A stretch of DNA of 64,000 bases, taken from positions 480,001 to 544,000 of the forward strand of contig OY968764.1 of assembly GCA_963695335.1 (NCBI GenBank), in the 5' to 3' direction. The notes under the pieces were generated by a model. That model was not told where the DNA came from. It was given only the letters and a program-made list of their open reading frames with translations, and ran no database searches. A program made the translations under genes and the position numbers. Position 1 is the first letter of the stretch, and every line of letters starts with the position of its first letter. Origin of the DNA: an uncultured bacterium. GTDB taxonomy: Bacteria; Babelota; Babeliae; Babelales; Vermiphilaceae. Shown one piece after another: positions 14,240 to 42,867 of this stretch.

Positions 14240-14317
14240 GTCCCTATCGTCTAGCCTGGTCTAGGACATCGCCCTTTCACGGCGAAAACAGGGGTTCAAA
14301 TCCCCTTGGGGATGCCA
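14240..14317 (+). tRNA. tRNA-Glu (anticodon UUC), integration target
   Basis: GTCCCTA/TGGGGAT acceptor stem plus G-CCA; anticodon arm TCGCC-CTTTCAC-GGCGA; GGTTCAAATCC T-arm. Confidence 0.96.
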
Positions 14318-15766
14318 TTGTATACAATCGAACGAATCTGCGATTAAATCGAATGGCGAAACAAGCTCCCAATGAACATTTTCACCACTTATCTTCAAGT
14401 TCGATAATACGGTTTTGATTAAAAGCCGTTTTTGCTGAACTTCTGAACTTATAAAAATATCATATGCTCTGTCTGCAAGCTTAAGCAGCATCTGTGCGGT
14501 AATATAGTAATTTGTCTCTGCTTCTTGAAGTTGCTCTAAACGAATGGCAATATCAGTTGCTTTGTCTTTGAGTGATGTGAAGAATTTGTCATAGTAGGCG
14601 TCAGTAATACTCCCTTTCAGTTTATCCATATAAAGATTATCCATCATCGTGGCAAGTGTGCTTTGTTCTTTTAATAACTTTTCATTTTCTTGTTTGTGGA
14701 ATTCAACTTTGTTTTTATGCACTTCAGTGAGAACATCCATCGTGTCTTGGAGAATGTTTTTTGGCATTTGTAGGCGTGCAAAGAGTTTGCTGATGCTTGC
14801 AGTAATTGTTTCTTCACGGAACCATGTTGCGCCATGTTTGCCTTTTGCTTGCGTGCAATGGTAATAAACATGGCCTTTTTGCCGTTCATGGGTTATTGCA
14901 AGACCGCAATCGCCGCAACGGATTAAACCGCGATATAAAATGTCTTCTTTGCCTTTGTAGCGTTGTAGGTTTTTTCCATTTCTTTTTCTAACTTCTTGTA
15001 CTTCCTGAAACAATGCTTGTGTAATGATGGGTGGATAATTATGAGGATATGATTTTCCATTCACGGTCATGATGCCGTAATAGAAGGTGTAATTGAACAT
15101 TTTATCAACATTGCTTGTGGACCATGCAAGGCCATAATCAGTGTTTATTTTTTTGCATAAGGTGGAAAAAGAAAATGCACCTGTTGCATACAATTCAAAT
15201 GCTTTGCGCACAACTTGTGAGCCAAATTCATCAACAATAATTGTTGTTTTGTCGCTACCTAATGAAATGTTTTTATACCCATAAGGCGCTTTTGCAGGCC
15301 ATTCACCTTTGCGTAACTTTTGTTCAATGGCACGTTTAACATTATCACTGATTGCATCGGAATAATATTTTGCTAACCCAAGGCTGATGCCAAATTGGAA
15401 CTTTTCAACAGCAGAAATATTACTGTTGATGATTTGCCCGTCGGAAATAAAATGTAATTCAAGTTGATCTCTGAGGGCTTTTTCATAAAGGGTGGAGATG
15501 CGTTTATCAAAGGTGTTGCGTGATAGTCTATCTACTTTATCGCAGCAGATAACAACTTTTTCTTTTTGATTGAGTGCATAATCAATAATTGCATCAAATT
15601 CAGAGCGGCTATTGGTATAAGCACTTTCATCAAAGCTGCAAGTGCGGAGTATACTAAAGCCTTTGTTGCGACAATATTGTTCAAGGCGACTTATCTGGGC
15701 AGGGAGTGAATTACCAGCTTCTTTTTGTTCTTCTGTGCTGACACGAGCTATCAGAATAGCTTTCAT
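14261..15766 (-). CDS. Large serine recombinase (resolvase, recombinase and zinc-ribbon domains)
   Basis: ARVSTEEQ catalytic Ser, DRLSR, APYGY, CGDCG...YYHC and coiled coil; last codons are the antisense of tRNA-Glu. Confidence 0.95.
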   Translation of the reverse strand: MKAILIARVSTEEQKEAGNSLPAQISRLEQYCRNKGFSILRTCSFDESAYTNSRSEFDAIIDYALNQKEKVVICCDKVDRLSRNTFDKRISTLYEKALRDQLELHFISDGQIINSNISAVEKFQFGISLGLAKYYSDAISDNVKRAIEQKLRKGEWPAKAPYGYKNISLGSDKTTIIVDEFGSQVVRKAFELYATGAFSFSTLCKKINTDYGLAWSTSNVDKMFNYTFYYGIMTVNGKSYPHNYPPIITQALFQEVQEVRKRNGKNLQRYKGKEDILYRGLIRCGDCGLAITHERQKGHVYYHCTQAKGKHGATWFREETITASISKLFARLQMPKNILQDTMDVLTEVHKNKVEFHKQENEKLLKEQSTLATMMDNLYMDKLKGSITDAYYDKFFTSLKDKATDIAIRLEQLQEAETNYYITAQMLLKLADRAYDIFISSEVQQKRLLIKTVLSNLKISGENVHWELVSPFDLIADSFDCIQWHPQGDLNPCFRRERAMS

Positions 15767-16008
15767 GGGATAAATCCTTTTGTTTATGGATATTTCGTAG
15801 ATTTGTCGATGATAGTGTAACAGAAGAAATGAGGATTGTTATTAGTATTATAATTGGAGCTTCAAGATGATAATAAATATAAACAACAAGATATGATGAA
15901 TATAACTTAATATATTTAATTATATTTTTATGTATTAAATTTACTTAATTACATTATTATGGCATTCTTTGTGTGCATTACAAAATACATAACAAAAAAG
16001 GTGCCCTC

Positions 16009-17196
16009 ATGAAAAATTCTCATCTAATTCTCACCCTATGTGCATTAAGCACATTGATATCTCACTCAATGCAACTTACTCTCAAAGCAAATCCTCACAA
16101 ACTTAAACAGATAAGATACATTACATCACAAAAGGAATCACAAACAACACCCACCAAGATAAAGAAACAAAAAAATAATCAATATAATAATTGTTGTATT
16201 ATTGAAGGAAAAGAACGAGTAAAAGACCTTGTGGTACAGACTTCAAATGCATTGCAATCACGCCTTAAGGAATTACAAACAACATTCACCAAGACAAAGA
16301 AACGAAACAGCAGTCAATGCAATAATTGTTGTATTGTTGAAAAAAAAGAGCAAATTAAAGATCTTGTGGTATATACTTCAAATTCATTGCAATCATGTTT
16401 TCCTACATATAACTCCAAATACGATTCCAAAGTTTTTGTTGAAGATTATGGTTGTCAAAGTTTACATATTGTATTCGGTATGACCCATGCTTGTTTTGCC
16501 GTTGCGACGCTTAACCCTATTGGCTTGATTCCAATTATTACGAATGCTGTAGCAATAAAATGTATTAAGTTAGATAGGGATCTTATTAATTCAGTAGAAC
16601 GACCTCAGTTAGCAACAGATTTGATATCTTATTTGAATGCGATTAATCGTGAGGGTTATCTTTCTATTCATAGGCTTTTTATCAGAAGAGATTGTATAGA
16701 AAATGAGATAAGAAATCATAAAAAAGTTAATACACAAACGCTTTCATCCCTTGATTTAAAAAACGCATTAAATAATTATAATGTAAAACTTATTGAGTTA
16801 GAAAAGTCAGAAGACATAATAAATAGTGAAATTCTTGAACCAATCTTACCTATTTTGAATAAGTATGAAAATGTAGATATTGAAAAATGTTTAACATATA
16901 CAGATACACTAAAGAGAACTGCGGCATTTAAAAGACGTTTACTTGTTGGTGGAAGTTTGGCTATTTATCTCTCCACTTTGGGTATCGTTGTGGATGGCAC
17001 TGACAATGTATTAATTGCATTCATAGCTACGTTATCTATGCTTGATTTAATAGGAACACCTTTAATAATGGATAATGATTTATCAGATAAGATGAATATT
17101 ATTTCGAATTGCCTAAAAATCTATAAAAATCATTTGGCAACAATACAAAACAATGCTTTTGTAAAAACATTAGAAAATAAAAAAAATATTGAGTAA
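16009..17196 (+). CDS. Cargo protein: signal peptide, internal Cys-containing repeat, two hydrophobic hairpins
   Basis: AAGGTG RBS; NNCCI.E.KE..KDLVV.TSN.LQS occurs twice; ORF open from 15973. Confidence 0.75.
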   Translation: MKNSHLILTLCALSTLISHSMQLTLKANPHKLKQIRYITSQKESQTTPTKIKKQKNNQYNNCCIIEGKERVKDLVVQTSNALQSRLKELQTTFTKTKKRNSSQCNNCCIVEKKEQIKDLVVYTSNSLQSCFPTYNSKYDSKVFVEDYGCQSLHIVFGMTHACFAVATLNPIGLIPIITNAVAIKCIKLDRDLINSVERPQLATDLISYLNAINREGYLSIHRLFIRRDCIENEIRNHKKVNTQTLSSLDLKNALNNYNVKLIELEKSEDIINSEILEPILPILNKYENVDIEKCLTYTDTLKRTAAFKRRLLVGGSLAIYLSTLGIVVDGTDNVLIAFIATLSMLDLIGTPLIMDNDLSDKMNIISNCLKIYKNHLATIQNNAFVKTLENKKNIE

Positions 17197-17276: not shown

Positions 17277-18434
17277 TCAAATTTCTTTTGTGATAGGTTC
17301 AAATTTTTCTAAGCAATCCCTAATCACCTTAAATGAATTTGATGATATGGGTTGTTGAGTAATCGTAGTGTTTTTCATATCAGCAATTAAGCGGTACCAG
17401 CTACGTTTATTGTGTGCACCAAGCATAGTGCGTAGTTCACGAATGCTTATTTGATCCAATGCCAATTTCATTCCATAAAGCTGCAAAATACGGCGAGGGC
17501 TGAGGGTAGGATTATTAAAAATAAGAGCAACAAGAAGTTGTTTTGTGTTATTTGTTTTGAAATCCAACAACGGTGGGCGCATGCGTTCAATTTCATCAAG
17601 ATAATGCAGGAGTACTTTGCGTGCAATGTTTGTTTTGAAGAGTCCTTTAAAGGTCAGTTGAGCTTTAATATTCAGCATCTTTAAAATCTGTTGGATCTTG
17701 CGCCGATTATTCAAGCGTGCTTCCATGCGTAAAACTTCAAACATTTTTTTATTATGCAATTCATCGTAGAGGTGCAATTGAATTGCGTTATCTTTTTCTA
17801 ATGATCGTTTATCACTTTTTTTTGCATATTCAAGATCACGAATTTTATCATAAAAAACTAATTCATAAGAGTTACTATGCCATTTGTAGCTGTGGCCTTT
17901 ATTGCGGTAATCAGTTTGATTGATATCAAGAGAGAGTTTGATATTTGCTTGTTCAATTTTGCTGATGTAATGATACGGAATAGAACCATCAGTGAGTGGG
18001 ATATTTTTTGAAAAATGAATGCCGGAAACGGGTGCATTGATCAAATTTTCAATATCAGTTGCAACTCCCATGGTGTGTAATGTTGTGCATAATTTTTGTA
18101 CAAGATCAGGAAATTGTTTTTGTGTTAGTTCTTCAAAGTTGTTACCAAATAATAGTTTTGGCAATGATAGTTCAATTTTAAGCAACGTTTTTGGTGTTGA
18201 GAGTGGTGAGGGCCGTCTTAAAAGGGATAGACGAGGTTTATAATAACCTGTAGCTAATTCTTTTTTTGTCGGGTTTTGTTTGGAAGAAATGCCGCGCAAA
18301 GCATAGGTTTTATCGTTGATCTCGGTCTTCGAAGCTTTAGCGAAGTAGACCCATCGCGCAGAAGGCGTAAATAAATCAGGATTAGTAATTTCAAACAAGT
18401 CTTGCGTAAGGAGTAAAACGATCGTATCTATCAT
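17277..18434 (-). CDS. Rolling-circle replication initiator, phage gII/X (CRI)-like
   Basis: MIDTI start, IELSLPKLLFGNN, V..IHFSKN, LVFYDK (putative catalytic Tyr) and LRMEARL motifs. Confidence 0.7.
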   Translation of the reverse strand: MIDTIVLLLTQDLFEITNPDLFTPSARWVYFAKASKTEINDKTYALRGISSKQNPTKKELATGYYKPRLSLLRRPSPLSTPKTLLKIELSLPKLLFGNNFEELTQKQFPDLVQKLCTTLHTMGVATDIENLINAPVSGIHFSKNIPLTDGSIPYHYISKIEQANIKLSLDINQTDYRNKGHSYKWHSNSYELVFYDKIRDLEYAKKSDKRSLEKDNAIQLHLYDELHNKKMFEVLRMEARLNNRRKIQQILKMLNIKAQLTFKGLFKTNIARKVLLHYLDEIERMRPPLLDFKTNNTKQLLVALIFNNPTLSPRRILQLYGMKLALDQISIRELRTMLGAHNKRSWYRLIADMKNTTITQQPISSNSFKVIRDCLEKFEPITKEI

Positions 18435-18804
18435 TGCAATATCCCATGATGAAATCAATTATATTGCACGTAAGGATACGGGTAAATGCTTTGAAAAACA
18501 AGTCCCGCAGAGCGGTTCTTGATGAATTACTCATTGCGGGATATTTGATGTGGCAAGGCTTGCCCTTCATAGCTTTAGCGGAGTAGGGTTGGTGTTTTAT
18601 GGGCCTGTGGAAGCCGCAGCACCCAACTTCGCAAAAGCTTTGAGACTCAGCTTTTTTTGCTTTTGCCTTTTTTGGTGAACGTCTTTTATTTGCTGCACTT
18701 GTTTGCAGATTCACTTCTATAAGTAATGTGAATAAGTTTGCAACACGTGTTTTTTCTTCAACTGTTAAGACTCTAACAGATTTTATTGGTCGTAATCGAG
18801 CCAT
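18391..18804 (-). CDS. Small basic hypothetical protein upstream of rep
   Basis: GAGAG RBS; helical N-half (LTVEEKTRVANLFTLLIEVN); the C-half contains a palindromic repeat and may be degenerate. Confidence 0.55.
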   Translation of the reverse strand: MARLRPIKSVRVLTVEEKTRVANLFTLLIEVNLQTSAANKRRSPKKAKAKKAESQSFCEVGCCGFHRPIKHQPYSAKAMKGKPCHIKYPAMSNSSRTALRDLFFKAFTRILTCNIIDFIMGYCNDRYDRFTPYARLV

Positions 18805-19071: not shown

Positions 19072-19401
19072 TTATTTTCTGCTTGGTACAGGAATCTCAA
19101 GCGGGATGTATTGGCCGTGAAGTTCAACCATGATTTTTTTGGATCCAAGCCCTCTTAAGATTTTAAAGAAACTTTGCATACTAAAATCTGTTTTGCTTCC
19201 TGATCGCATTGCTTGCACAATAGTCGGAGATACTCCTGCCATTTTTGCAAGTTTTCTTACGGATATATTGTCTTTTGCCATAGCAGCAAGAATCAATTCA
19301 GACAAAAGAAGTTCTTTATATTCTTCATCAAATTTTTTACGTTCTTCTGGGCTTAATGATTCAATAAGTTCATCTACAGTTGATTTTACTTTTTTATTCA
19401 T
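19072..19401 (-). CDS. XRE-HTH antitoxin (HigA-like)
   Basis: ISVRKLAKMAGVSPTIVQAMRSG HTH; overlaps the stop of the upstream toxin. Confidence 0.8.
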   Translation of the reverse strand: MNKKVKSTVDELIESLSPEERKKFDEEYKELLLSELILAAMAKDNISVRKLAKMAGVSPTIVQAMRSGSKTDFSMQSFFKILRGLGSKKIMVELHGQYIPLEIPVPSRK

Positions 19402-19777
19402 AATATGTTCCTTCTTTAACTCTTTTAATATAGTTCTCTTTTGCTCTTAAAGCTTTTTCTTTTTCTTTTATAGGCATTTTTGCTGATTTTTTTTCATAGG
19501 CATTGGTTATAATAACTTTTGATCCATCAAAGAAAAAACAGAAAAATCTGTCTGGTGAAGATTTAAATACATATATTTGGTCTCCTTCATAACGAAATTT
19601 TTCTAGATTAAAAACTTTTCCTGTGTTTCCAAGTAATAAAAAAAGGCGTGCGAGTTTCTTTTGACGATCATCAGGTAAATTTTTGAAATGAGCTAAAGGT
19701 TCACTTTTTCCCTTATCATTAAAATACCATTCAATGATATATTCTTTACCTTCACATGCTACAATCTTTTTCTTCAT
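19394..19777 (-). CDS. RelE/ParE-superfamily (Gp49/HigB-like) toxin
   Basis: IEWY...GKSE, IYVFK...RFFCFF...IITNAYEKKS.K.P..E pattern; toxin-first gene order. Confidence 0.85.
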   Translation of the reverse strand: MKKKIVACEGKEYIIEWYFNDKGKSEPLAHFKNLPDDRQKKLARLFLLLGNTGKVFNLEKFRYEGDQIYVFKSSPDRFFCFFFDGSKVIITNAYEKKSAKMPIKEKEKALRAKENYIKRVKEGTYYE

Positions 19778-19844: not shown

Positions 19845-20032
19845 AGCACAAGGATGATTATAATTTTGCACCTTCGTTCATTGTATATTTAACTCCGCAA
19901 ATAGCGTCTGTATCATGCTTAATGAGTATTTTATAGGGGCTGTTTGGTTCAGGAGAGCATGGTGAAGGGGATGCCAGTCTTCGCTCTAGCGAGCTTCGTA
20001 TGGCAAGCCAATCTTCGCAAATGATTGATATT

Positions 20033-20280
20033 AAAAATTAAAAGAGCTGTTTTAACAACGGCTCTTTTTTTTTTGTTTTAAATCGATCTATTCGTTACTT
20101 TTTATGTTTTGACCTATAAAATTCTATTGTGAAATATTGTTAAATTATAAAAATATTTATAAAACCATTGTTTTCTACCCCCCCCCATCTGATATTGTTA
20201 TAATTGAAATAAATATTGTTAGTTTTTCAAAAAAGGAGAGTTTTCATGAAGAAGTTATGTTTATTGTCAGGAATGATGGT
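20033..20280 (+). repeat. Terminator-promoter-signal peptide cassette, copy 1 (C9 tract)
   Basis: Near-identical to 23222-23463 and, in its 3' part, to 42236-42393; has TGTTATAAT extended -10 and poly-C at 20178-20186. Confidence 0.85.
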
Positions 20281-20824
20281 TTTTGTTGTGGCAGGTGTTA
20301 ATGCGGCACAAAACTTGACAGATGAACAACGTCAAAAATTGGAACAAGTGCAATGGGGAAAAATTAGACAACAACACGAATTGGCACGTCCTGCAACCTA
20401 TAAGATGTTAGATCCATTAGTACAGCAAAGCAACTGGCCTGCTGTTTTTCATATTCTTGATCAAATGCAAGGGGTTATAAGTGTTAATGAGTATCGATAC
20501 CATGGGGATACACTGCTTACTTTCGCGGTAGGTACAAAAAATATTTCAGCAGCAAAAACATTACTTGAAAAATATAAAGCTAATCCTAATGTAACATCTT
20601 TATCATTTTCAGGTCTTGGATTGTCACCATTGATGCAGGCTTGTATAACGGGAGACCTTGCCATGGTTAAATTATTACTTAGCTATAAAGCTAATCCTTT
20701 TTTAATGAGATCAGGAGAGGGAATAACACCAGGAAGTACCGCGTTGTTCTATGCTAAATATTATAACTATCCTGAAATTGTAAAATTGTTGGAAAAATAT
20801 ACACGTCCTGCAAAAGATGCATAA
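20246..20824 (+). CDS. Secreted ankyrin-repeat protein
   Basis: MKKLCLLSGM signal peptide; GDTLLTFAV, SPLMQACITGDLAMVKLLL and TALFYA..Y.EIVKLL repeats. Confidence 0.88.
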   Translation: MKKLCLLSGMMVFVVAGVNAAQNLTDEQRQKLEQVQWGKIRQQHELARPATYKMLDPLVQQSNWPAVFHILDQMQGVISVNEYRYHGDTLLTFAVGTKNISAAKTLLEKYKANPNVTSLSFSGLGLSPLMQACITGDLAMVKLLLSYKANPFLMRSGEGITPGSTALFYAKYYNYPEIVKLLEKYTRPAKDA

Positions 20825-20825
20825 A

Positions 20826-21026
20826 TTATAAAAATAAATGAGATCCCTTCTCTTGTTGTAGTTTTAAATTCTTCTAAACAATCTTTAATAATTTTAAACG
20901 AATTAGATGGCATGGGTTGTTGGGGAATGCTAGCATCTTTTATGTCAGCAATTAAGCGATACCAGCTGCGTTTATTGTAAGCACCAAACATGGTACGTAA
21001 TTCTCAGATGCTTATTGTTCCAATGC
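20826..21026 (-). pseudogene. 3' remnant of a rep gene homologous to 17277..18434
   Basis: MFGAYNKRSWYRLIADIK...SNSFKIIKDCLEEF versus MLGAHNKRSWYRLIADMK...SNSFKVIRDCLEKF; frameshift and stop upstream. Confidence 0.85.
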
Positions 21027-21289
21027 TATTTATGTTTTGCTTCAAGTTTTAATTGTAATCCCATGGCATTAATAATTGTACGAAAATCATGCCAACGTAG
21101 ATTCTTTTTAGAAAGCATTTTATAGATGTTTTGGTTGTCTACATTTTGTGCGTTAAGAACATGCTTTAAGGCAAGACGAATAGTTTCTTGATTTTCATCC
21201 ATAAGAGTAGCATTAAGGCATGCAAGTGCTTCTTCAGGATCTTGGAGTGCTTTGAGTAAACTTTCTTCGTGATCGATTGTTCTTTTCAT
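21026..21289 (-). CDS. Addiction-module antidote (HI1420-like) with an apparently shortened HTH
   Basis: LQDPEEALACLNA...LAL..V..AQ...QNIYKMLSKK...IINAMGLQL pattern. Confidence 0.7.
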   Translation of the reverse strand: MKRTIDHEESLLKALQDPEEALACLNATLMDENQETIRLALKHVLNAQNVDNQNIYKMLSKKNLRWHDFRTIINAMGLQLKLEAKHK

Positions 21290-21711
21290 TTTTCTTGTGT
21301 ATTTAAAGCATTATATTTTTGAAGAGCTAACTTTTTAATTTCTGCAATTTCATCTTCAGTAAAACGTTCTTTGAGATATCTTTGGAAAGTTTTTCTGTTC
21401 AGAGTTTTTTTTGCTATGACCATTTCAATAGCAGTGAGTTCAACTTCTTCTAAAATACCTCGATCTTTTAAAAAATCATCAAAGTTAGAGCCAATATACT
21501 TATTTTTTGTCATTATATTTTGTATCTTTTGTGATTGGATAATAGTTGGAGATACTTTTGCTATTTTTGCGAGTTTTTTTACTGATACATTATCTTTGGC
21601 TATAGCAGCAAGAATTAACTCGGATAATGCGAATATTCTATATTCTTCATTAAATTTTTTGCATTCTTCTGGACTCAATGATTCGATGAATGTATCAAAT
21701 GTTGATTTCAT
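21286..21711 (-). CDS. Chimeric protein of three antitoxin N-terminal segments
   Basis: aa 1-59 match 19072..19401; aa 67-101 carry IGSNFDDFL...GILEEV; aa 105-136 match the N-terminus of 21708..22013. Confidence 0.7.
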   Translation of the reverse strand: MKSTFDTFIESLSPEECKKFNEEYRIFALSELILAAIAKDNVSVKKLAKIAKVSPTIIQSQKIQNIMTKNKYIGSNFDDFLKDRGILEEVELTAIEMVIAKKTLNRKTFQRYLKERFTEDEIAEIKKLALQKYNALNTQEK

Positions 21712-22013
21712 TTTTTGAAGATATCTTTTGGCTCTTTATCCATAAGAGCTAGAAAGTGAGCAAAGCTTGCAAGTGTTAAGTTTGCTTGGCCACGTTGTAT
21801 TTTGGAGGCTTGAGATGGGCTTGTGGATAAGCGACGAACAACTTCGTTAAAACCAACCTTATTTTTTTTCATATATTCTGCCATAGTATCAGAAAGTATT
21901 TTTTGAATTGATCTGAGAATATCAACTTCAAGTTGTGCTTTGCGCTCAATTTCAGCAATTTGTTCTTTAGTGAGTCTTTTCTCTACGATGTCATAAAAGC
22001 TTTTTGTTTTCAT
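21708..22013 (-). CDS. XRE-HTH antitoxin
   Basis: ATG 22013 just after the toxin stop; GFNEVVRRLSTSPSQASKIQRGQANLTL HTH. Confidence 0.8.
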   Translation of the reverse strand: MKTKSFYDIVEKRLTKEQIAEIERKAQLEVDILRSIQKILSDTMAEYMKKNKVGFNEVVRRLSTSPSQASKIQRGQANLTLASFAHFLALMDKEPKDIFKK

Positions 22014-22014
22014 A

Positions 22015-22338
22015 TTATTTTTCCTCTGATAAGCGTTTATATGCAGTTTTAATATCTTTTTCCTGTGACTTTTTATCACCAGCAGCAAGTAGAATAATTA
22101 ATTGATTTTCCTTAAAGCAATAATATAGTCGGTATCCAAATTGTCGTTCACGTAATTCAAAGAGTCCTTTACCTAATGCACGACTATGAGGAAGTTTTAA
22201 TTCATTGCCTAATTTTTCTAACATGCGTAATTCTTGGGAGATAGATTCAAATTGTTCAATGGTTAACTTATAGATCCATTTTTCAAGGGGGCTTTTTCCG
22301 CTTTCATTAACCCAATATTCTATATTCCATTTTTTCAA
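22015..22338 (-). CDS. RelE/HigB (Gp49-like) toxin
   Basis: GKSPLEKW, LPHSRALGKGLFELR, YRLYYCF and LLAAGDK.SQ..DI..A; TTG start with AGGAG RBS. Confidence 0.88.
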   Translation of the reverse strand: MKKWNIEYWVNESGKSPLEKWIYKLTIEQFESISQELRMLEKLGNELKLPHSRALGKGLFELRERQFGYRLYYCFKENQLIILLAAGDKKSQEKDIKTAYKRLSEEK

Positions 22339-22451
22339 AGCTTCACTCCTACAAATAATAGTACTACTATAAAAGATAGTATAATAAGCGATGTTATGTC
22401 AATGCTAAACTTAATAAGTTACTTTATATAATGGAGTTTGTTTGCTCATTC

Positions 22452-22541
22452 GTTAACCATATCTTAAATTCCGTAAAGAGCGTCTGCATCATGCTTAATG
22501 GGTACTTGAAGGGGGCTGTTTGGTTCAGGAGAACATGGTGA
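22452..22541 (-). repeat. Second copy of the element right end (att-proximal integrase-tail sequence)
   Basis: AGCGTCTG.ATCATGCTTAATG.GTA....GGGGCTGTTTGGTTCAGGAGA.CATGGTGAA shared with 19880-19966. Confidence 0.85.
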
Positions 22542-22629
22542 AAAGGGAAGGCTTGAGTTGCTGTTGTGAGAAATGGGGTATGTGGTATACTGATTAATAG
22601 AAATTAACTTTTTAAATTAGGGATAATTT

Positions 22630-23202
22630 ATGAAAAAAATATTTTTTATAGCAGTCTTTATGGTTGTGGGACTATTTCTAGAAGTTGGCGCCAGTCCTGC
22701 GCGTCTTAATGCTAAGGAAGCGCAGAATATACTCAATAGAATTGAATCTGAAGCTCAATCTCATGCTTGGGAGCCTACAGGCCCTACTGCAGAAGATATC
22801 CGAGCAGCTACTAAAGTTGAAAAGTTAGCGGTTAAGGGAAGTATAGAAGATAAACTTATAAGTGCTGTGAAGAATGGTGATCTTAAAAGTGTTGAAACTT
22901 TCATTGTTGCGGGCGCAAATCTTGAAGCTAGAGATAATCAGGATATGACTGCTCTTATGATAGCTGCAGACAGAGGTTATTCTGATATTGCTAGAGCTCT
23001 TATAGATGCAGGCGCTGATATTAACGCTCAGGATAAGTTCGGTTGTACAGCGCTTTTTAAGGCTGCAGACAAAAACCATGTTGGTATTGTAAAAATGCTT
23101 GTAGCTAAGGGAGCTGTAGATAATAGTTTTGAAGATATGTTGATGCGTGCTACATTTCAAGGTAATGCAGAAATGGTGAAAGCTCTTAATAAAGAAGCTT
23201 AA
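22630..23202 (+). CDS. Secreted ankyrin-repeat protein
   Basis: Signal peptide; TALMIAA..G..DI..ALI.AGADINAQD..G.TAL repeats. Confidence 0.92.
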   Translation: MKKIFFIAVFMVVGLFLEVGASPARLNAKEAQNILNRIESEAQSHAWEPTGPTAEDIRAATKVEKLAVKGSIEDKLISAVKNGDLKSVETFIVAGANLEARDNQDMTALMIAADRGYSDIARALIDAGADINAQDKFGCTALFKAADKNHVGIVKMLVAKGAVDNSFEDMLMRATFQGNAEMVKALNKEA

Positions 23203-23221
23203 TAGTTTTATAAAAATAGTT

Positions 23222-23463
23222 AAAAATTAAAAGAGTCGTTTAAAACGGCTCTTTTTTTTGTTTTAAATCGATCCATTCGTCTTTTTCCATATTTTGACTA
23301 TAAAAATTCTATTGTAAAATATTGTAAAATTATAAAAATATTTATAAAACTATTGTTTTCTACCCCCCCCCCACCTGATATTGTTATAATTGAAATAAAT
23401 ATTGTTAATTCTCAAAAGAGGAGTATTTTTATGAAAAAGTTATGTTTACTATCAGGAATGATA
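23222..23463 (+). repeat. Terminator-promoter-signal peptide cassette, copy 2 (C10 tract)
   Basis: Aligns with 20033-20280; poly-C at 23363-23372. Confidence 0.85.
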
Positions 23464-24048
23464 GCTTTGGTTGCGGTTGCACATATTAATGGAGATGTTA
23501 CTTATCCTGGAAATTTAAAAGAAAAGCATATTCAGAGAATAGAAGATGTGCAAAGAGAGAAAATTAAACGTCAAAAACAGTTAGCACGTCCACCAATATA
23601 TAGAATGGTTGATGCTTTGATTAAAGAAGAATATGCATCGTGGCATTACGATGATAATGGACAATGGGTTGAAGCACCGGCAAAAATTGTTGTAGATTGG
23701 CCAGCCGTTTTTAGAATTTTAGATTCAATGCCTGGGGTTATCGATGTTAATGAATATGCAACTTATGAGAATCAGGATCCTTTACTTTGGGTTGCAGTAG
23801 AACAAAAAAATTTCTTAGCAGCTAAAACATTACTCGAAAAATATCATGCTGATCCTAATTTTGGCAAATGTACGGGAGAGCATGGAAAAAATGAGAAATG
23901 TAATATGAACGATTCTCTTTTGATGTTAGCGCGTGAAAAAGGAGATGTTCAAATGGGTATATTATTAACACAGCATGGCGCTCATCCGATTACGATGAAA
24001 CAAATAGGCATTGATAAAGGTTGGACTAATCCGAGTAACCGTGAATGA
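23431..24048 (+). CDS. Secreted ankyrin-like protein, paralog of 20246..20824
   Basis: MKKLCLLSGM, LARP..Y.M.D.L, DWPAVF.ILD.M.GVI.VNEY and AAKTLLEKY.A.PN are shared. Confidence 0.85.
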   Translation: MKKLCLLSGMIALVAVAHINGDVTYPGNLKEKHIQRIEDVQREKIKRQKQLARPPIYRMVDALIKEEYASWHYDDNGQWVEAPAKIVVDWPAVFRILDSMPGVIDVNEYATYENQDPLLWVAVEQKNFLAAKTLLEKYHADPNFGKCTGEHGKNEKCNMNDSLLMLAREKGDVQMGILLTQHGAHPITMKQIGIDKGWTNPSNRE

Positions 24049-24090: not shown

Positions 24091-24124
24091 AATCCCTTTT
24101 TATGATAATTCATAAGAAGGGATT
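24091..24124. terminator. Repeated stem-loop ATCCCTTTTTATG.TAATTCATAA..AGGGAT, copy 1
   Basis: Hairpin with T-tail; four copies in the window. Confidence 0.75.
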
Positions 24125-24190
24125 TTTGCATTCTTCTGAACTTAATGACTCGATGAAGTTATCGAATGTTGATTTAGTTTTTTTATTCAT
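24110..24190 (-). pseudogene. 26-codon antitoxin N-terminal fragment
   Basis: MNKKTKSTFDNFIESLSSEECKNPFL* matches the N-termini of 19072..19401 and 21286..21711. Confidence 0.7.
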
Positions 24191-27863: not shown

Positions 27864-30363
27864 ATGTTCAAATTGCGGTATCGGTATTTGATTTTTTTAC
27901 TTTTTTATCATTCCTTGCAAGCATTAACAACGCTTAATGTAACATTAGATTCAGACAATAATCCGGGTGGCAGGTGAGATTGGTGATTTGAGATATGCTT
28001 GAATACAATGAATCAAGGTCTTAACTCAATACCCGATGATTATGCGATTGTTTTTGACTTTCCAATGACGATTCAACTCAATGGAATCTTGCCGATTATT
28101 AACAATTCCTCAAATCCTGTGAATATCACCATTGGTAATACAGGCTCAACTCCTACCGTTACAATTGATGGTAATAGTGGTGCTTACAGTGGATTTTTTA
28201 TCCCAACGGGAAATGTGACGATTCAAAACATGATCTTTCAAAACCTGAGCGCACAAGGTGGTAATGGTGGAGACGGAATTTCAGGCGGTGGTGGTGGAAT
28301 GGGTGCTGGAGGGGCCATTTACGCACCTCAATTCTTTTTAAATGGCTCAAATCCTTCAATCACTTTGATGAATGTATTGATAAATGAATGTTCTGCTGTT
28401 GGTGGAAATGGAGGAAGTTATATAGGTCTTTCTTCCACTGGTAATGAAGGTGGCGGAGGTGGCGGAGGTTTTAGCGGAAATGGTGGTTCTATTACTACCA
28501 CGGGAAGCACTGGAGGGGGTGGCGGAGGTGGCTTTGGTGGAGATGGTGGAGATGTTACTCTTTCGACCGATGATTTGGGGGGCGGCGGAGGTGGTGGCGG
28601 TGGAATAGGATCCCGCGCTACCATAGGCACACTCACGAATCTGGGCAACGGAGGCTCGGATCAGAATATCGGTTTGGATGGAAATGGTTATGGTCTTTCA
28701 ATTACTGCTGGTTCAGGTGCCGGAGGGAATTCTGGAGGGAACATGGCAGGAGGAGGCGGTGGCGGCACCACGGGAGGTGGCGGAGGGGGAAGTAATGGAT
28801 CTGATGGGTTTCAACCGCAAGGTAGTTTAGCACCAGGAGGCAGTGCTGTACCTTCTGGAGGCAATGGAGGAGACGGCGGTGGAGGAGGCGGCGGTGGCGT
28901 TGTTGTAACATCGTTTACAAATGGAGTAGATGGACAAGCAGGTAGTGGTGGCTATGGCGGCGGCGGCGGTGGTGGGGCTGGTACGGGTGCTTATGATGCT
29001 TCTTATACAGTACAAGGTGGATCTGGTGGAGTTGGCGGAGGTGGCGGTGGCGGAGGAGTGAATCAATCCGGTACGACGCCTGCATGAGGTGGTAATTCTC
29101 TTGGTGGAGGTGGCGGCGCAGGTGGTGGACCATCTAATGGTATCACTGCTTGGGTGGAAATGATATAGGAAATCTTGGTGGAGGATCAGGAGGAATGGGC
29201 GCAAATAACTATGGAGCAGGTTTTGGTGGTGGAGGCGGTGGCGGAGGAAGTGGTCTGGGCGGAGCTATATTTGTGGATAGCGGTTTGAATTTCACCATAC
29301 AAGCATTCTCTGGAATTCCAACCACGTTCAATACACCAAATAATACAACACAAGCAGGAACTCATGGAACTGGTGGCCCTGGAGCTCAAGATGGTCTAGA
29401 TGGATCAGCACTTGGGAATAGTATTTTCCTGCGCTCTGGATCTTCTTTAACATTCATGGCGCAAGATGTTGATGATCTTTTAACACTTGGTGATCAAGTT
29501 GCGTTTATTGATGATACAAGTTTTGGTGGGCAAGGAACGAGTGTCTTTGTAGGAGGAAATGGAACTGTTATTTACAATGGAACAACAGATTATCCAGGAA
29601 CCATTACTATCAACAATGCGAATTTCAAAGTGAATGGGTTGATCGATGCAGCATCTATTTTTGTCTGTAGAAACATTGGTTTTAGTGCGCAAAGAGGTAC
29701 TCTCAGTGGGAGTGGAACATTAACTGGAAATGTTTTTGTAAATTCCGGAACAATCTCTCCAGATACAGGGCAAGCACTCACGCTTGGAAGTTTGACTCTC
29801 AATTCAGCAGATCCAATTAACAACACTCTTGGAAGCCTTGTGCATATTGAAATTGATGCAAACAGAGGCACATCTTTATTGATGTTACCGGGCCTGCATC
29901 ATTAGCGGGTACATTAGAAATTGAATTAGACCCAAATGCTCAGCCTGGAACGTATACTATTCTGAATTCATCTGGTATTACAGGAACCTTTGATACCGTT
30001 ACATTTACAGGAACAGTTCCTAATTATACGCTTTCTTATCTGCCAGTTGGAAATCCTACCTTTGTGCAATTTGATTTCTTAGGTTACCCAAACCCTAATC
30101 CTTTGCATAAAAAGAAGTTCCGCGAAACGCTTGCAGCGTATCATCAAGCATATCTGTTTGAAAAGGTTGTTGCAGCTATTGGAAAACATGAAAATAAAGA
30201 TGAAAAACGTTTACGTAAAAAAGAAGCAAAACGGTTGGAACATTATAAGCAGCTTCATCCTTATAGTCACTATGTAAAAAAGCATTTCAAATGGCTCAAG
30301 AAGTTTAAGCATAAAGAAGTTCCGCATATTGTTCACTTGATTAAAAAAGGTGAAGCGGCATAA
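27864..30363 (+). pseudogene. Degraded glycine-rich autotransporter-passenger/adhesin-like gene
   Basis: Signal peptide from ATG 27864; frameshifts near 27970-28000, 29150 and 29870; in-frame TGA at 29085; GGAIY/GGAIF motifs and beta-helix-like tail. Confidence 0.75.
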
Positions 30364-42235: not shown

Positions 42236-42393
42236 AATTTCTATTGTGAAATATTATAAAATTATAAGAATGTTTATAAAACCATTGTTTTTTACCCCCC
42301 CCATCTGATATTGTTATAATTGAAATAAATATTGTTAGTTTTCAAAAAAGGGGTGTTTTTATGAAGAAGTTATGTTTATTGTCGGGGATGATG
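42236..42393 (+). repeat. Promoter-signal peptide cassette, copy 3 (C8 tract)
   Basis: Aligns with 20120-20280; poly-C at 42295-42302. Confidence 0.85.
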
Positions 42394-42867
42394 GCATTTA
42401 GCTTGGTTGTTAACGCGGATATTACTAATAATCAAGGAAATCTCAAAACCCCAGGGAATATTACAGAAGAAGAACGTCAGAAAATAGAACAAGTTCAATG
42501 GGGTAAAATTACACGTCAAGAAGAACTTGCTCGTCCAGCAACTTATAAAATGCTTGATTCGTTAATTAGGCCGCTATCTGTATCAGGCCTCAGAGAAGAA
42601 GAGGTGGTTGACTGGACAACTGTTTTTGCAATTCTTGATTCAATGCGAGGAGTTATTGATGTTAACGAATACTGTACTCCGCTTCGCAATACATTGCTTG
42701 GATTGGCAGCAGAAGAGGAAAATATACCAGTGATAAGGATATTATGTGAAAAATATAATGCCAATCCTTATCGAGCATGTTATCAGGGAGCTCCATCTCC
42801 ATTAGATCAAAAGGTACCCAATGCTAGAGTGCGTGATGTGTTACGTTACTATGCTAGGAATTTTTAA
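42361..42867 (+). CDS. Secreted ankyrin-like protein, paralog of 20246..20824
   Basis: MKKLCLLSGMM, EQVQWGKI, LARPATYKMLD, GVIDVNEY and EKYNANP are shared. Confidence 0.85.
   Translation: MKKLCLLSGMMAFSLVVNADITNNQGNLKTPGNITEEERQKIEQVQWGKITRQEELARPATYKMLDSLIRPLSVSGLREEEVVDWTTVFAILDSMRGVIDVNEYCTPLRNTLLGLAAEEENIPVIRILCEKYNANPYRACYQGAPSPLDQKVPNARVRDVLRYYARNF

Follow-up and report, generated by a model that had tools for sequence, protein, structure and literature searches.

In the portion of the structural report on which we draw, the antitoxin SpHigA of S. pneumoniae contacts its toxin through residues W10 to S34, carries an HTH at residues 47 to 66 and a C-terminal strand that dimerizes, and binds as a dimer-based tetramer (PMC7984235). 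Excerpts from related studies state that residues 3 to 22 of V. cholerae HigA2 suffice for neutralization (PMC5416850), that the neutralizing tail of a Phd-type antitoxin is C-terminal (PMC4803016), and that isolated Phd-C worked only on a carrier, SUMO (PMC10440598). The available text of PMC7354431 leaves undecided whether orphan antitoxins serve as functional anti-addiction devices or result from decay, and states that orphan anti-addiction has not yet been demonstrated as a common use. The Babelota are described, in the part of PMC12172432 consulted, as strictly intracellular in protists. Here we analyze a locus from a bacterium of this phylum, likely a protist parasite, in which a single reading frame, located behind a complete toxin-antitoxin (TA) pair, combines N-terminal segments from three antitoxin families. 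Judged by its sequence relationships, the fusion is probably a polyvalent anti-addiction antitoxin, which would silence three HigB/Gp49-type mRNase toxins encoded elsewhere.

Organization of the four-gene locus

The window, i.e., the whole stretch of 64,000 nucleotides that was analyzed, belongs to a genome (G000) assembled as a single 1.37-Mb contig. An earlier note on this DNA had listed a toxin, an antitoxin, the fusion, and an HI1420-like gene; all four reading frames were confirmed on the minus strand (Table 1), together with the ATGA overlaps at both gene junctions and the lack of an internal stop in the fusion. Antitoxin families are labeled after the neighboring antitoxin at 19072-19401 (A), P0019 and its like (B), the adjacent antitoxin at 21708-22013 (C), and the HI1420-like gene (D).

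Table 1. Features of the locus and its surroundings (positions within the window)
Feature	Position	Strand	Remarks
tRNA-Glu of the neighboring integrated element	14240-14317
Serine recombinase of the neighboring element	14261-15766
Rep-like gene of the neighboring element	17277-18458
Antitoxin of the neighboring intact family-A pair	19072-19401	minus
Toxin of the neighboring intact family-A pair	19394-19777	minus
Rep-like gene, 3' remnant	20848-21026	minus	79% to 17283-17462
Orphan HI1420-like antitoxin (family D)	21026-21289	minus	33-nt and 3-nt in-frame deletions in HTH region
Three-module antitoxin fusion A-B-C'	21286-21711	minus	141 aa, stop-free; core of the finding
Module C', aa 101-141	21289-21411	minus	family-C N-terminal segment, HTH-free; subfamily other than that of the adjacent gene
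Module B, aa 67-100	21412-21513	minus	family-B N-terminal segment; stops before HTH
Module A, aa 1-62	21526-21711	minus	N-terminal helices and first HTH half of HigA-like family A; first four codons lost
Complete family-C HTH antitoxin	21708-22013	minus	101 aa from ATG; weak HTH_19 match, E 0.0016
Gp49/HigB-like RelE-superfamily toxin (family C)	22015-22338	minus	PF05973, E 1.5e-14; family matches SpHigB 6AF3_A, E 0.009
Promoter-like site	22373-22402	minus	5' of toxin; 10/12, consensus match only
Element-end repeat	22441-22542		82% to 19865-19966
Third family-A N-terminal remnant	24110-24190	minus	26 codons

The toxin gene begins with TTG, with GGAG 5' of this start, and the complete antitoxin behind it, which L134 matches at 89%, is its cognate partner. 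The idea that the whole is an operon designed around one toxin did not hold: the fusion belongs to a separate, usually toxin-free cassette that is appended to a TA pair, as judged from three related loci (L031, L032, and L033; see below). The ATGA overlaps are a secondary state. Four codons are gone from the front of the fusion, whose present start Met lies inside the coding sequence of L032 and P0005, and in L031 the reading frame of the fusion extends 15 codons past the HI1420 start. A scan for promoters and terminators gave no excess over chance (12 promoter-like sites, with 8.6 expected).

The shortened HTH that had been suspected in the HI1420-like gene results from two in-frame deletions, both absent from L031 and L033. 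This gene reached 13.1 bits, with a cutoff of 27 (PF21716/TIGR02684), and had no NCBIfam match; intact family-D relatives match TIGR02684/PF21716, with clear PF21716 scores of 50 to 51.5 bits. Contigs assembled in two further studies cover the critical sites: X5 spans the B-C junction (21290-21479, one difference), and X1 spans the 33-nt deletion and the downstream junction (20919-21172, no differences), indicating that these features are not assembly errors. An assembly artifact was rejected on these grounds and because homologues share the same junctions.

A decayed array of integrated elements

The four genes are part of a series of integrated elements, now decayed, that lies at tRNA-Glu. 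The element bearing the fusion is the second of the array and has lost its rep gene and recombinase; its rep is reduced to 180 bp, abutting the stop codon of the D gene directly. The rep-like protein of the neighboring element (393 aa) matched nothing in Pfam or NCBIfam, and we infer the name "rep-like." Relatives of it occur in 7 of the 11 genomes of the genus, tied to tRNA-integrated elements with differing TA families, and two of them, by coordinates, closely follow a family-C antitoxin (G251 C14, G249 C33). Another element of G000 adjoins a family-E antitoxin; families A, C, and E are all represented on elements of one rep family, and this element family looks undescribed.

Several other features of the window were recorded. 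Ankyrin-repeat genes with a hydrophobic N terminus and a common upstream region of ~265 bp (20031-20824, 22630-23202, 23220-24048, and about 42236-42785) recur in the genome, both between the remnants of elements and at other places. A cargo gene (15973-17196, 407 aa) without a family match contains an internal 129-bp duplication (16132-16260/16267-16395), and a sequence of ~30 to 40 bp at 18559-18600 has many copies genome-wide. The GC-rich stretch at 27999-29905 holds glycine-rich open reading frames split across two frames, which we take to be autotransporter-like.

Composition of the fusion protein

The first part of the fusion had been described as resembling the neighboring antitoxin and breaking off mid-HTH, and this was borne out: module A is 69% identical to that antitoxin and ends within its HTH (HTH_3 at 40 to 86). 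The middle part, read earlier as the N terminus of another antitoxin family, is 76% identical to the N terminus of P0019; the HTH of this HTH_26/HTH_3 antitoxin begins at residue 38. For the last part, membership in the family of the adjacent antitoxin stood, but derivation from that antitoxin did not. The adjacent antitoxin misses aa 104 to 136 (tblastn, E≤1; blastp, E≤1e-3), so that a duplicate of it was rejected, and these residues are 51.5% identical (blastp) to the L004 antitoxin, a member of another subfamily from another genome. The three segments thus match distinct families, A, B, and C.

The N-terminal toxin-binding helices of these families are homologous to HigA. The family-A profile matches SpHigA (6AF3_B, E 6.3e-7), family B aligns to SpHigA 1-89 (E 0.0012), and family C is connected through B (hhalign, 95.5%). 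The toxins of A and C likewise match SpHigB, and the homology among the three antitoxin families extends along their whole length. The fusion departs from a canonical SpHigA-like antitoxin in two respects. It has no complete HTH or dimerization domain, as A is cut mid-HTH and B and C' stop before it, and no cognate toxin lies directly 5': the 5' toxin of the window owns its full antitoxin, L031 and L032 are toxin free, and L033 has a family-D pair. Neither the fusion nor any of its segments gave a useful match in Pfam or NCBIfam, and no HTH family matched the fusion. An all-helical AlphaFold2 model of the fusion alone was uninformative (mean pLDDT, 52; pTM, 0.28), and an ESM Atlas search gave a best score of 0.85, which is a lead only.

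As for toxins within reach, a genome scan of G000 detected those of families A, C, D, and G and none of family B. The family-A toxin next door (Table 1) is a candidate resident target of module A.

Module B is the equivalent of SpHigA 1-33, and the retained parts, compared by sequence, match the SpHigA toxin interface. The dimer-based tetramer of SpHigA weighs against our reading, in that the N-terminal part alone may not be sufficient for neutralization of this type. Two further families that recur in related fusions can be placed in the same way. Family E shares homology with V. cholerae HigA2 (E 2e-12). Family F looks like a Doc partner of the TIGR02609 type (a weak match, E 0.002), and its fusions with A keep the C-terminal piece, as expected for a Phd-type neutralizing tail; the carrier need of Phd-C offers a reason to concatenate. 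In a PDB search, families C and D had no significant match of their own, so a toxin-binding role of the D N terminus may be suggested by analogy only.

Relatives of the fusion and selection

A homologue search with the fusion returned 20 matches, and four other 90% clusters (P0002 to P0005) cover 96 to 99% of it at 70 to 76% identity. Their junctions are identical to those of the window fusion in protein, and the DNA alignment agrees, indicating one origin. A metagenome scan yielded three loci. L031 has A-B-C' and an intact D, with the toxin gene absent 5'; L032 is toxin free and has a 30-codon A piece, shortened by a frameshifting deletion, and B-C'; and L033 has B-C' behind a family-D TA pair. 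B-C' lacking A is also found in P0006. Among 261 genomes of the phylum, the full A-B-C fusion occurs only in G000. A scan with the fusion alignment found no relative in genome_contigs. One scan of viral contigs was negative too, which is weak evidence.

Over 139 codons, the window fusion and L031 differ by a dS of 0.60 and a dN of 0.13, giving a dN/dS of 0.216 (p 3e-9), a whole-fusion value that rests on a single pair because L031 is the sole full-length homologue with DNA. By module, this pair gives 0.18 for A, 0.20 for B (p≤6e-4 for each), and 0.25 for C'. For B-C', all six pairs fall between 0.13 and 0.37, and the window branch is at 0.27 to 0.28. On that branch, C' has 0.13 to 0.15, and B has 0.70 to 0.78, a noisy value with a dS of only 0.17; among L031 to L033, B has 0.07 to 0.17, and the L031-L032 pair of C' is a single outlier at 1.20. 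Arithmetic from pairwise values puts the HI1420-like gene at about 0.46 on the window branch. Module B and the HI1420-like gene thus look to be under relaxed constraint in the window copy. In the trees, the C' modules form one clade (support, 0.985) and the A modules one weak clade (0.63), indicating that the selection postdates the fusion; B modules are intermixed with native B genes, so part of the B signal may have been imported by recombination. The earlier note had asked whether the fusion is unique and neutral; it is neither. The fusion is conserved, not mere debris.

These values bear on the possibility that one module only, most likely C', still neutralizes a toxin and that the rest serves as a translation start or a stabilizing carrier. 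Such an arrangement would fit the forms without A (L032, L033, and P0006), the high B and low C' values on the window branch, and the need of isolated Phd-C for a SUMO carrier in the consulted part of PMC10440598. It is at odds with pairwise dN/dS values of about 0.2 for each of A and B, with the low B values among L031 to L033, and with the free variation of module order, the modules being almost always combined with other pieces of antitoxins (see below). We consider it unlikely.

The scans also bear on whether the fusion is an element- or phage-borne counterdefense that disarms host TA defense on entry. The window copy does lie within a tRNA-linked element array, and phages carry orphan antitoxins, as stated in the available part of PMC11825919. 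Against this stand the viral-contig scan, weak as it is, and the loss of rep and recombinase from the carrier element. The L032 cassette lies directly behind a gene end that presumably belongs to an enoyl-CoA hydratase-like gene, which we also count against this origin; it is the least credible of the explanations that we weighed. In L031 and L032, no element genes are in view around the cassette, and the host chromosome may thus be the likelier beneficiary. The TA modules of competing sister elements would be plausible targets, given the families found on elements of one rep family (see above).

Census of antitoxin fragments

Relatives often carry TA pairs of families A, B, and C, and partial antitoxins of these families and of D were counted with full-length profiles. 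For family C, 261 genomes gave 113 matches: 70 full, 27 N-only, 3 C-only, and 13 dropped (9 frameshifted whole genes or contig ends and 4 family-B cross-hits). The skew of N-only over C-only copies has a binomial p of 4e-6, which is overstated because kin are not independent. For family D, 80 genomes gave 60 matches, with 9 N-only copies (2 of the 9 were fetched) and no C-only copy after one frameshifted pair was dropped. Family A had 4 N-only and 2 C-only copies among 38 matches; family B had about 7 and 2, plus 2 clipped at both ends, with weak cross-hits excluded by judgment. The N-only skew is thus strong for C and D and weak for A and B.

All 27 N-only copies of family C were fetched, and none has an intact family-C toxin 5'. 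They end at nt 78 to 167 of 303 (median, 120), which is the start of the HTH, and several follow toxin 3' remnants (L094, L099, and L100). As orphan mini-genes they have a pooled dN/dS of 0.26 (24 compared with the nearest native gene), and natives have 0.16. G000 itself contains an orphan family-C N-terminal mini-gene at C1 about 394540 (L114:1963-2187), a family-E antitoxin without an adjacent toxin-profile match (C1 208653-208982), and a toxin remnant followed by a family-D antitoxin (1066121-1066609).

In three family-C copies (L099:4252-4443, L101:1960-2196, and L106:1935-2156), the HTH is deleted internally and the last ~10 residues are kept. The recurrent loss of whole HTHs and the C-terminal tails retained in these three would suit pieces that act as regulators, titrating resident toxins or antitoxins and so tuning TA autoregulation, with the HTH lost as harmful; the closeness of module A to a resident antitoxin would suit them too. 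We hold this to be very improbable, since G000 contains no toxin that would correspond to module B and C' is unlike the resident family-C antitoxin.

Other antitoxin concatenates

At least two antitoxin modules are present in 24 of 170 retrieved proteins, none of which matches a toxin profile (the module profiles were built from these loci). Because A, B, and C served as seeds, the set favors such fusions; 64 of its members were analyzed with Pfam. Further orders come from genome loci, which add D-C (L097), C-D (L116), C-F (L117), and C-E (L119), and confirm A-G (L131). Proteins and genome loci together show 17 module orders from 7 antitoxin families: A-B-C, B-C, C-B-C, C-A-D, C-A-B, C-A, C-B, A-F, A-E, E-A, A-G, A-A-D, B-D, D-C, C-D, C-F, and C-E. 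Such pieces have thus been joined repeatedly. Most of the concatenates are without a complete DNA-binding domain; P0109, L116, and L117 retain one. Antitoxin N termini joined to unrelated proteins were found in four cases (P0081, P0100, P0171, and L127), indicating that random in-frame joins do occur; in L127 (1128-2192), 21 family-B antitoxin residues are in frame with an APH-family phosphotransferase. A search for longer chains of 322 to 2,000 aa (248 to 321 aa lay outside the fusion queries) gave one unrelated fusion.

Possible source arrangements also exist. In L133, an intact A pair is followed on the same strand by an intact B pair and then an intact C pair, all within 7 kb. Whole orphan antitoxins stand behind another antitoxin gene in L003 (1119-1782, A-A), L007 (1067-1734, A-C), and L061 (1153-1782, A-B), and these stacked genes are probable fusion precursors.

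Neutral deletion debris of collapsing tandem TA elements would draw on the same material. The window locus is decayed (the rep remnant, the third A remnant, and the lost codons), tandem A-B-C pairs are available in L133, fusions to nonantitoxins arise, and N-only copies follow toxin remnants. Such an origin does not explain a dN/dS of 0.22 at a dS of 0.60 or breakpoints clustered before the HTH; moreover, antitoxin-toxin fusions number 0 of 170 proteins, and a neutral copy remained free of stops in 0.5% of 3,000 crude simulations at 0.3 substitutions per site. For the family, debris is largely refuted, and its probability is slight. The proposal of the earlier note that toxin-binding parts were gathered without their DNA-binding domains is supported by the distinct families, the homologues, and this dN/dS.

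Proposed mechanism

As a polyvalent anti-addiction antitoxin, the fusion would work as follows. Each segment would bind its toxin family in trans, folding like the two helices of SpHigA; loss of the HTH would remove operator binding, and fusing the segments would yield one stable product. The loss of an element or the entry of a new one would then no longer be lethal, so that the cell would be freed from addiction. The fusion may have originated by deletions across tandem TA-bearing elements such as those in L133, with joins in frame with the next antitoxin start being retained, and in the window the cassette would have become attached to the family-C pair of a decayed element.

A broader reading, for and against which we see the balance as even, is that Babelota trim the antitoxins of resident or past elements to toxin-binding peptides, keep them as mini-genes, and string them together polyvalently in many orders, with modules refreshed by recombination with native antitoxins; this would amount to a protein-level memory of addiction toxins. 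Decay does not readily account for an antitoxin that is fused, lacks an HTH and a toxin, and is under purifying selection, and the natural cut points would map minimal neutralizing segments of seven antitoxin families. The fusion would also illustrate how small-genome intracellular bacteria deal with a burden of addictive elements.

Comparison with known systems

Parent families A and B and the toxins of A and C resemble S. pneumoniae HigBA (PDB 6AF3/6AF4) by sequence, including the toxin-first order and the N-terminal two-helix interface followed by the HTH described in the portion of PMC7984235 used here. Compared with HigBA, the fusion lacks a complete HTH and the dimerizing strand, carries the interface in triplicate, and is not paired with a toxin of its own. 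The last gene of the locus corresponds to the HI1420-like antidote of the HI1419/HI1420 addiction module (TIGR02683/TIGR02684), here an orphan with in-frame deletions in its HTH.

Orphan or chromosomal antitoxins such as Erwinia chrysanthemi CcdA and T4 Dmd have no linked toxin and are proposed, in the available text of PMC7354431 and PMC12548467, to block the toxins of incoming elements. The fusion is similar in that a linked cognate toxin is absent, matching toxins lie on other elements (none of family B in G000), and purifying selection acts on it (dN/dS 0.22; weaker for B and D on the window branch). The antitoxins described there are whole and single, unlike the fusion, and PMC7354431, in its accessible text, uses none of the words truncated, fused, and fusion. 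Panacea/NetFlax multidomain antitoxins have modular, graftable neutralizing segments, and neutralization-domain-only antitoxins exist among them (PMC10440598); the sections of that paper at hand describe one antitoxin per adjacent toxin and no chain of segments from several families. In the literature covered, which included few subscription papers and no supplements and was available in part, chains of type II antitoxin neutralizing segments are not reported, in Babelota or elsewhere.

Polyimmunity proteins and loci are the nearest parallel in architecture. As set out in the part of PMC3482391 consulted, they hold several immunity domains per polypeptide or tandem operon, are toxin free, vary in order and content, and are proposed to act against foreign toxins. 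The A-B-C' fusion and the 16 other orders similarly place at least two distinct domains, predicted from homology to be neutralizing, in one polypeptide. The difference lies in the modules: polyimmunity uses globular immunity domains against secreted interbacterial toxins, whereas the modules here come from intracellular Gp49/RelE and Doc-partner antitoxins, not from secreted polymorphic-toxin immunity, and are trimmed type II segments that would face intracellular RelE-type (in relatives, Doc-type) addiction toxins. The fusion would thus extend the polyimmunity idea to type II TA systems.
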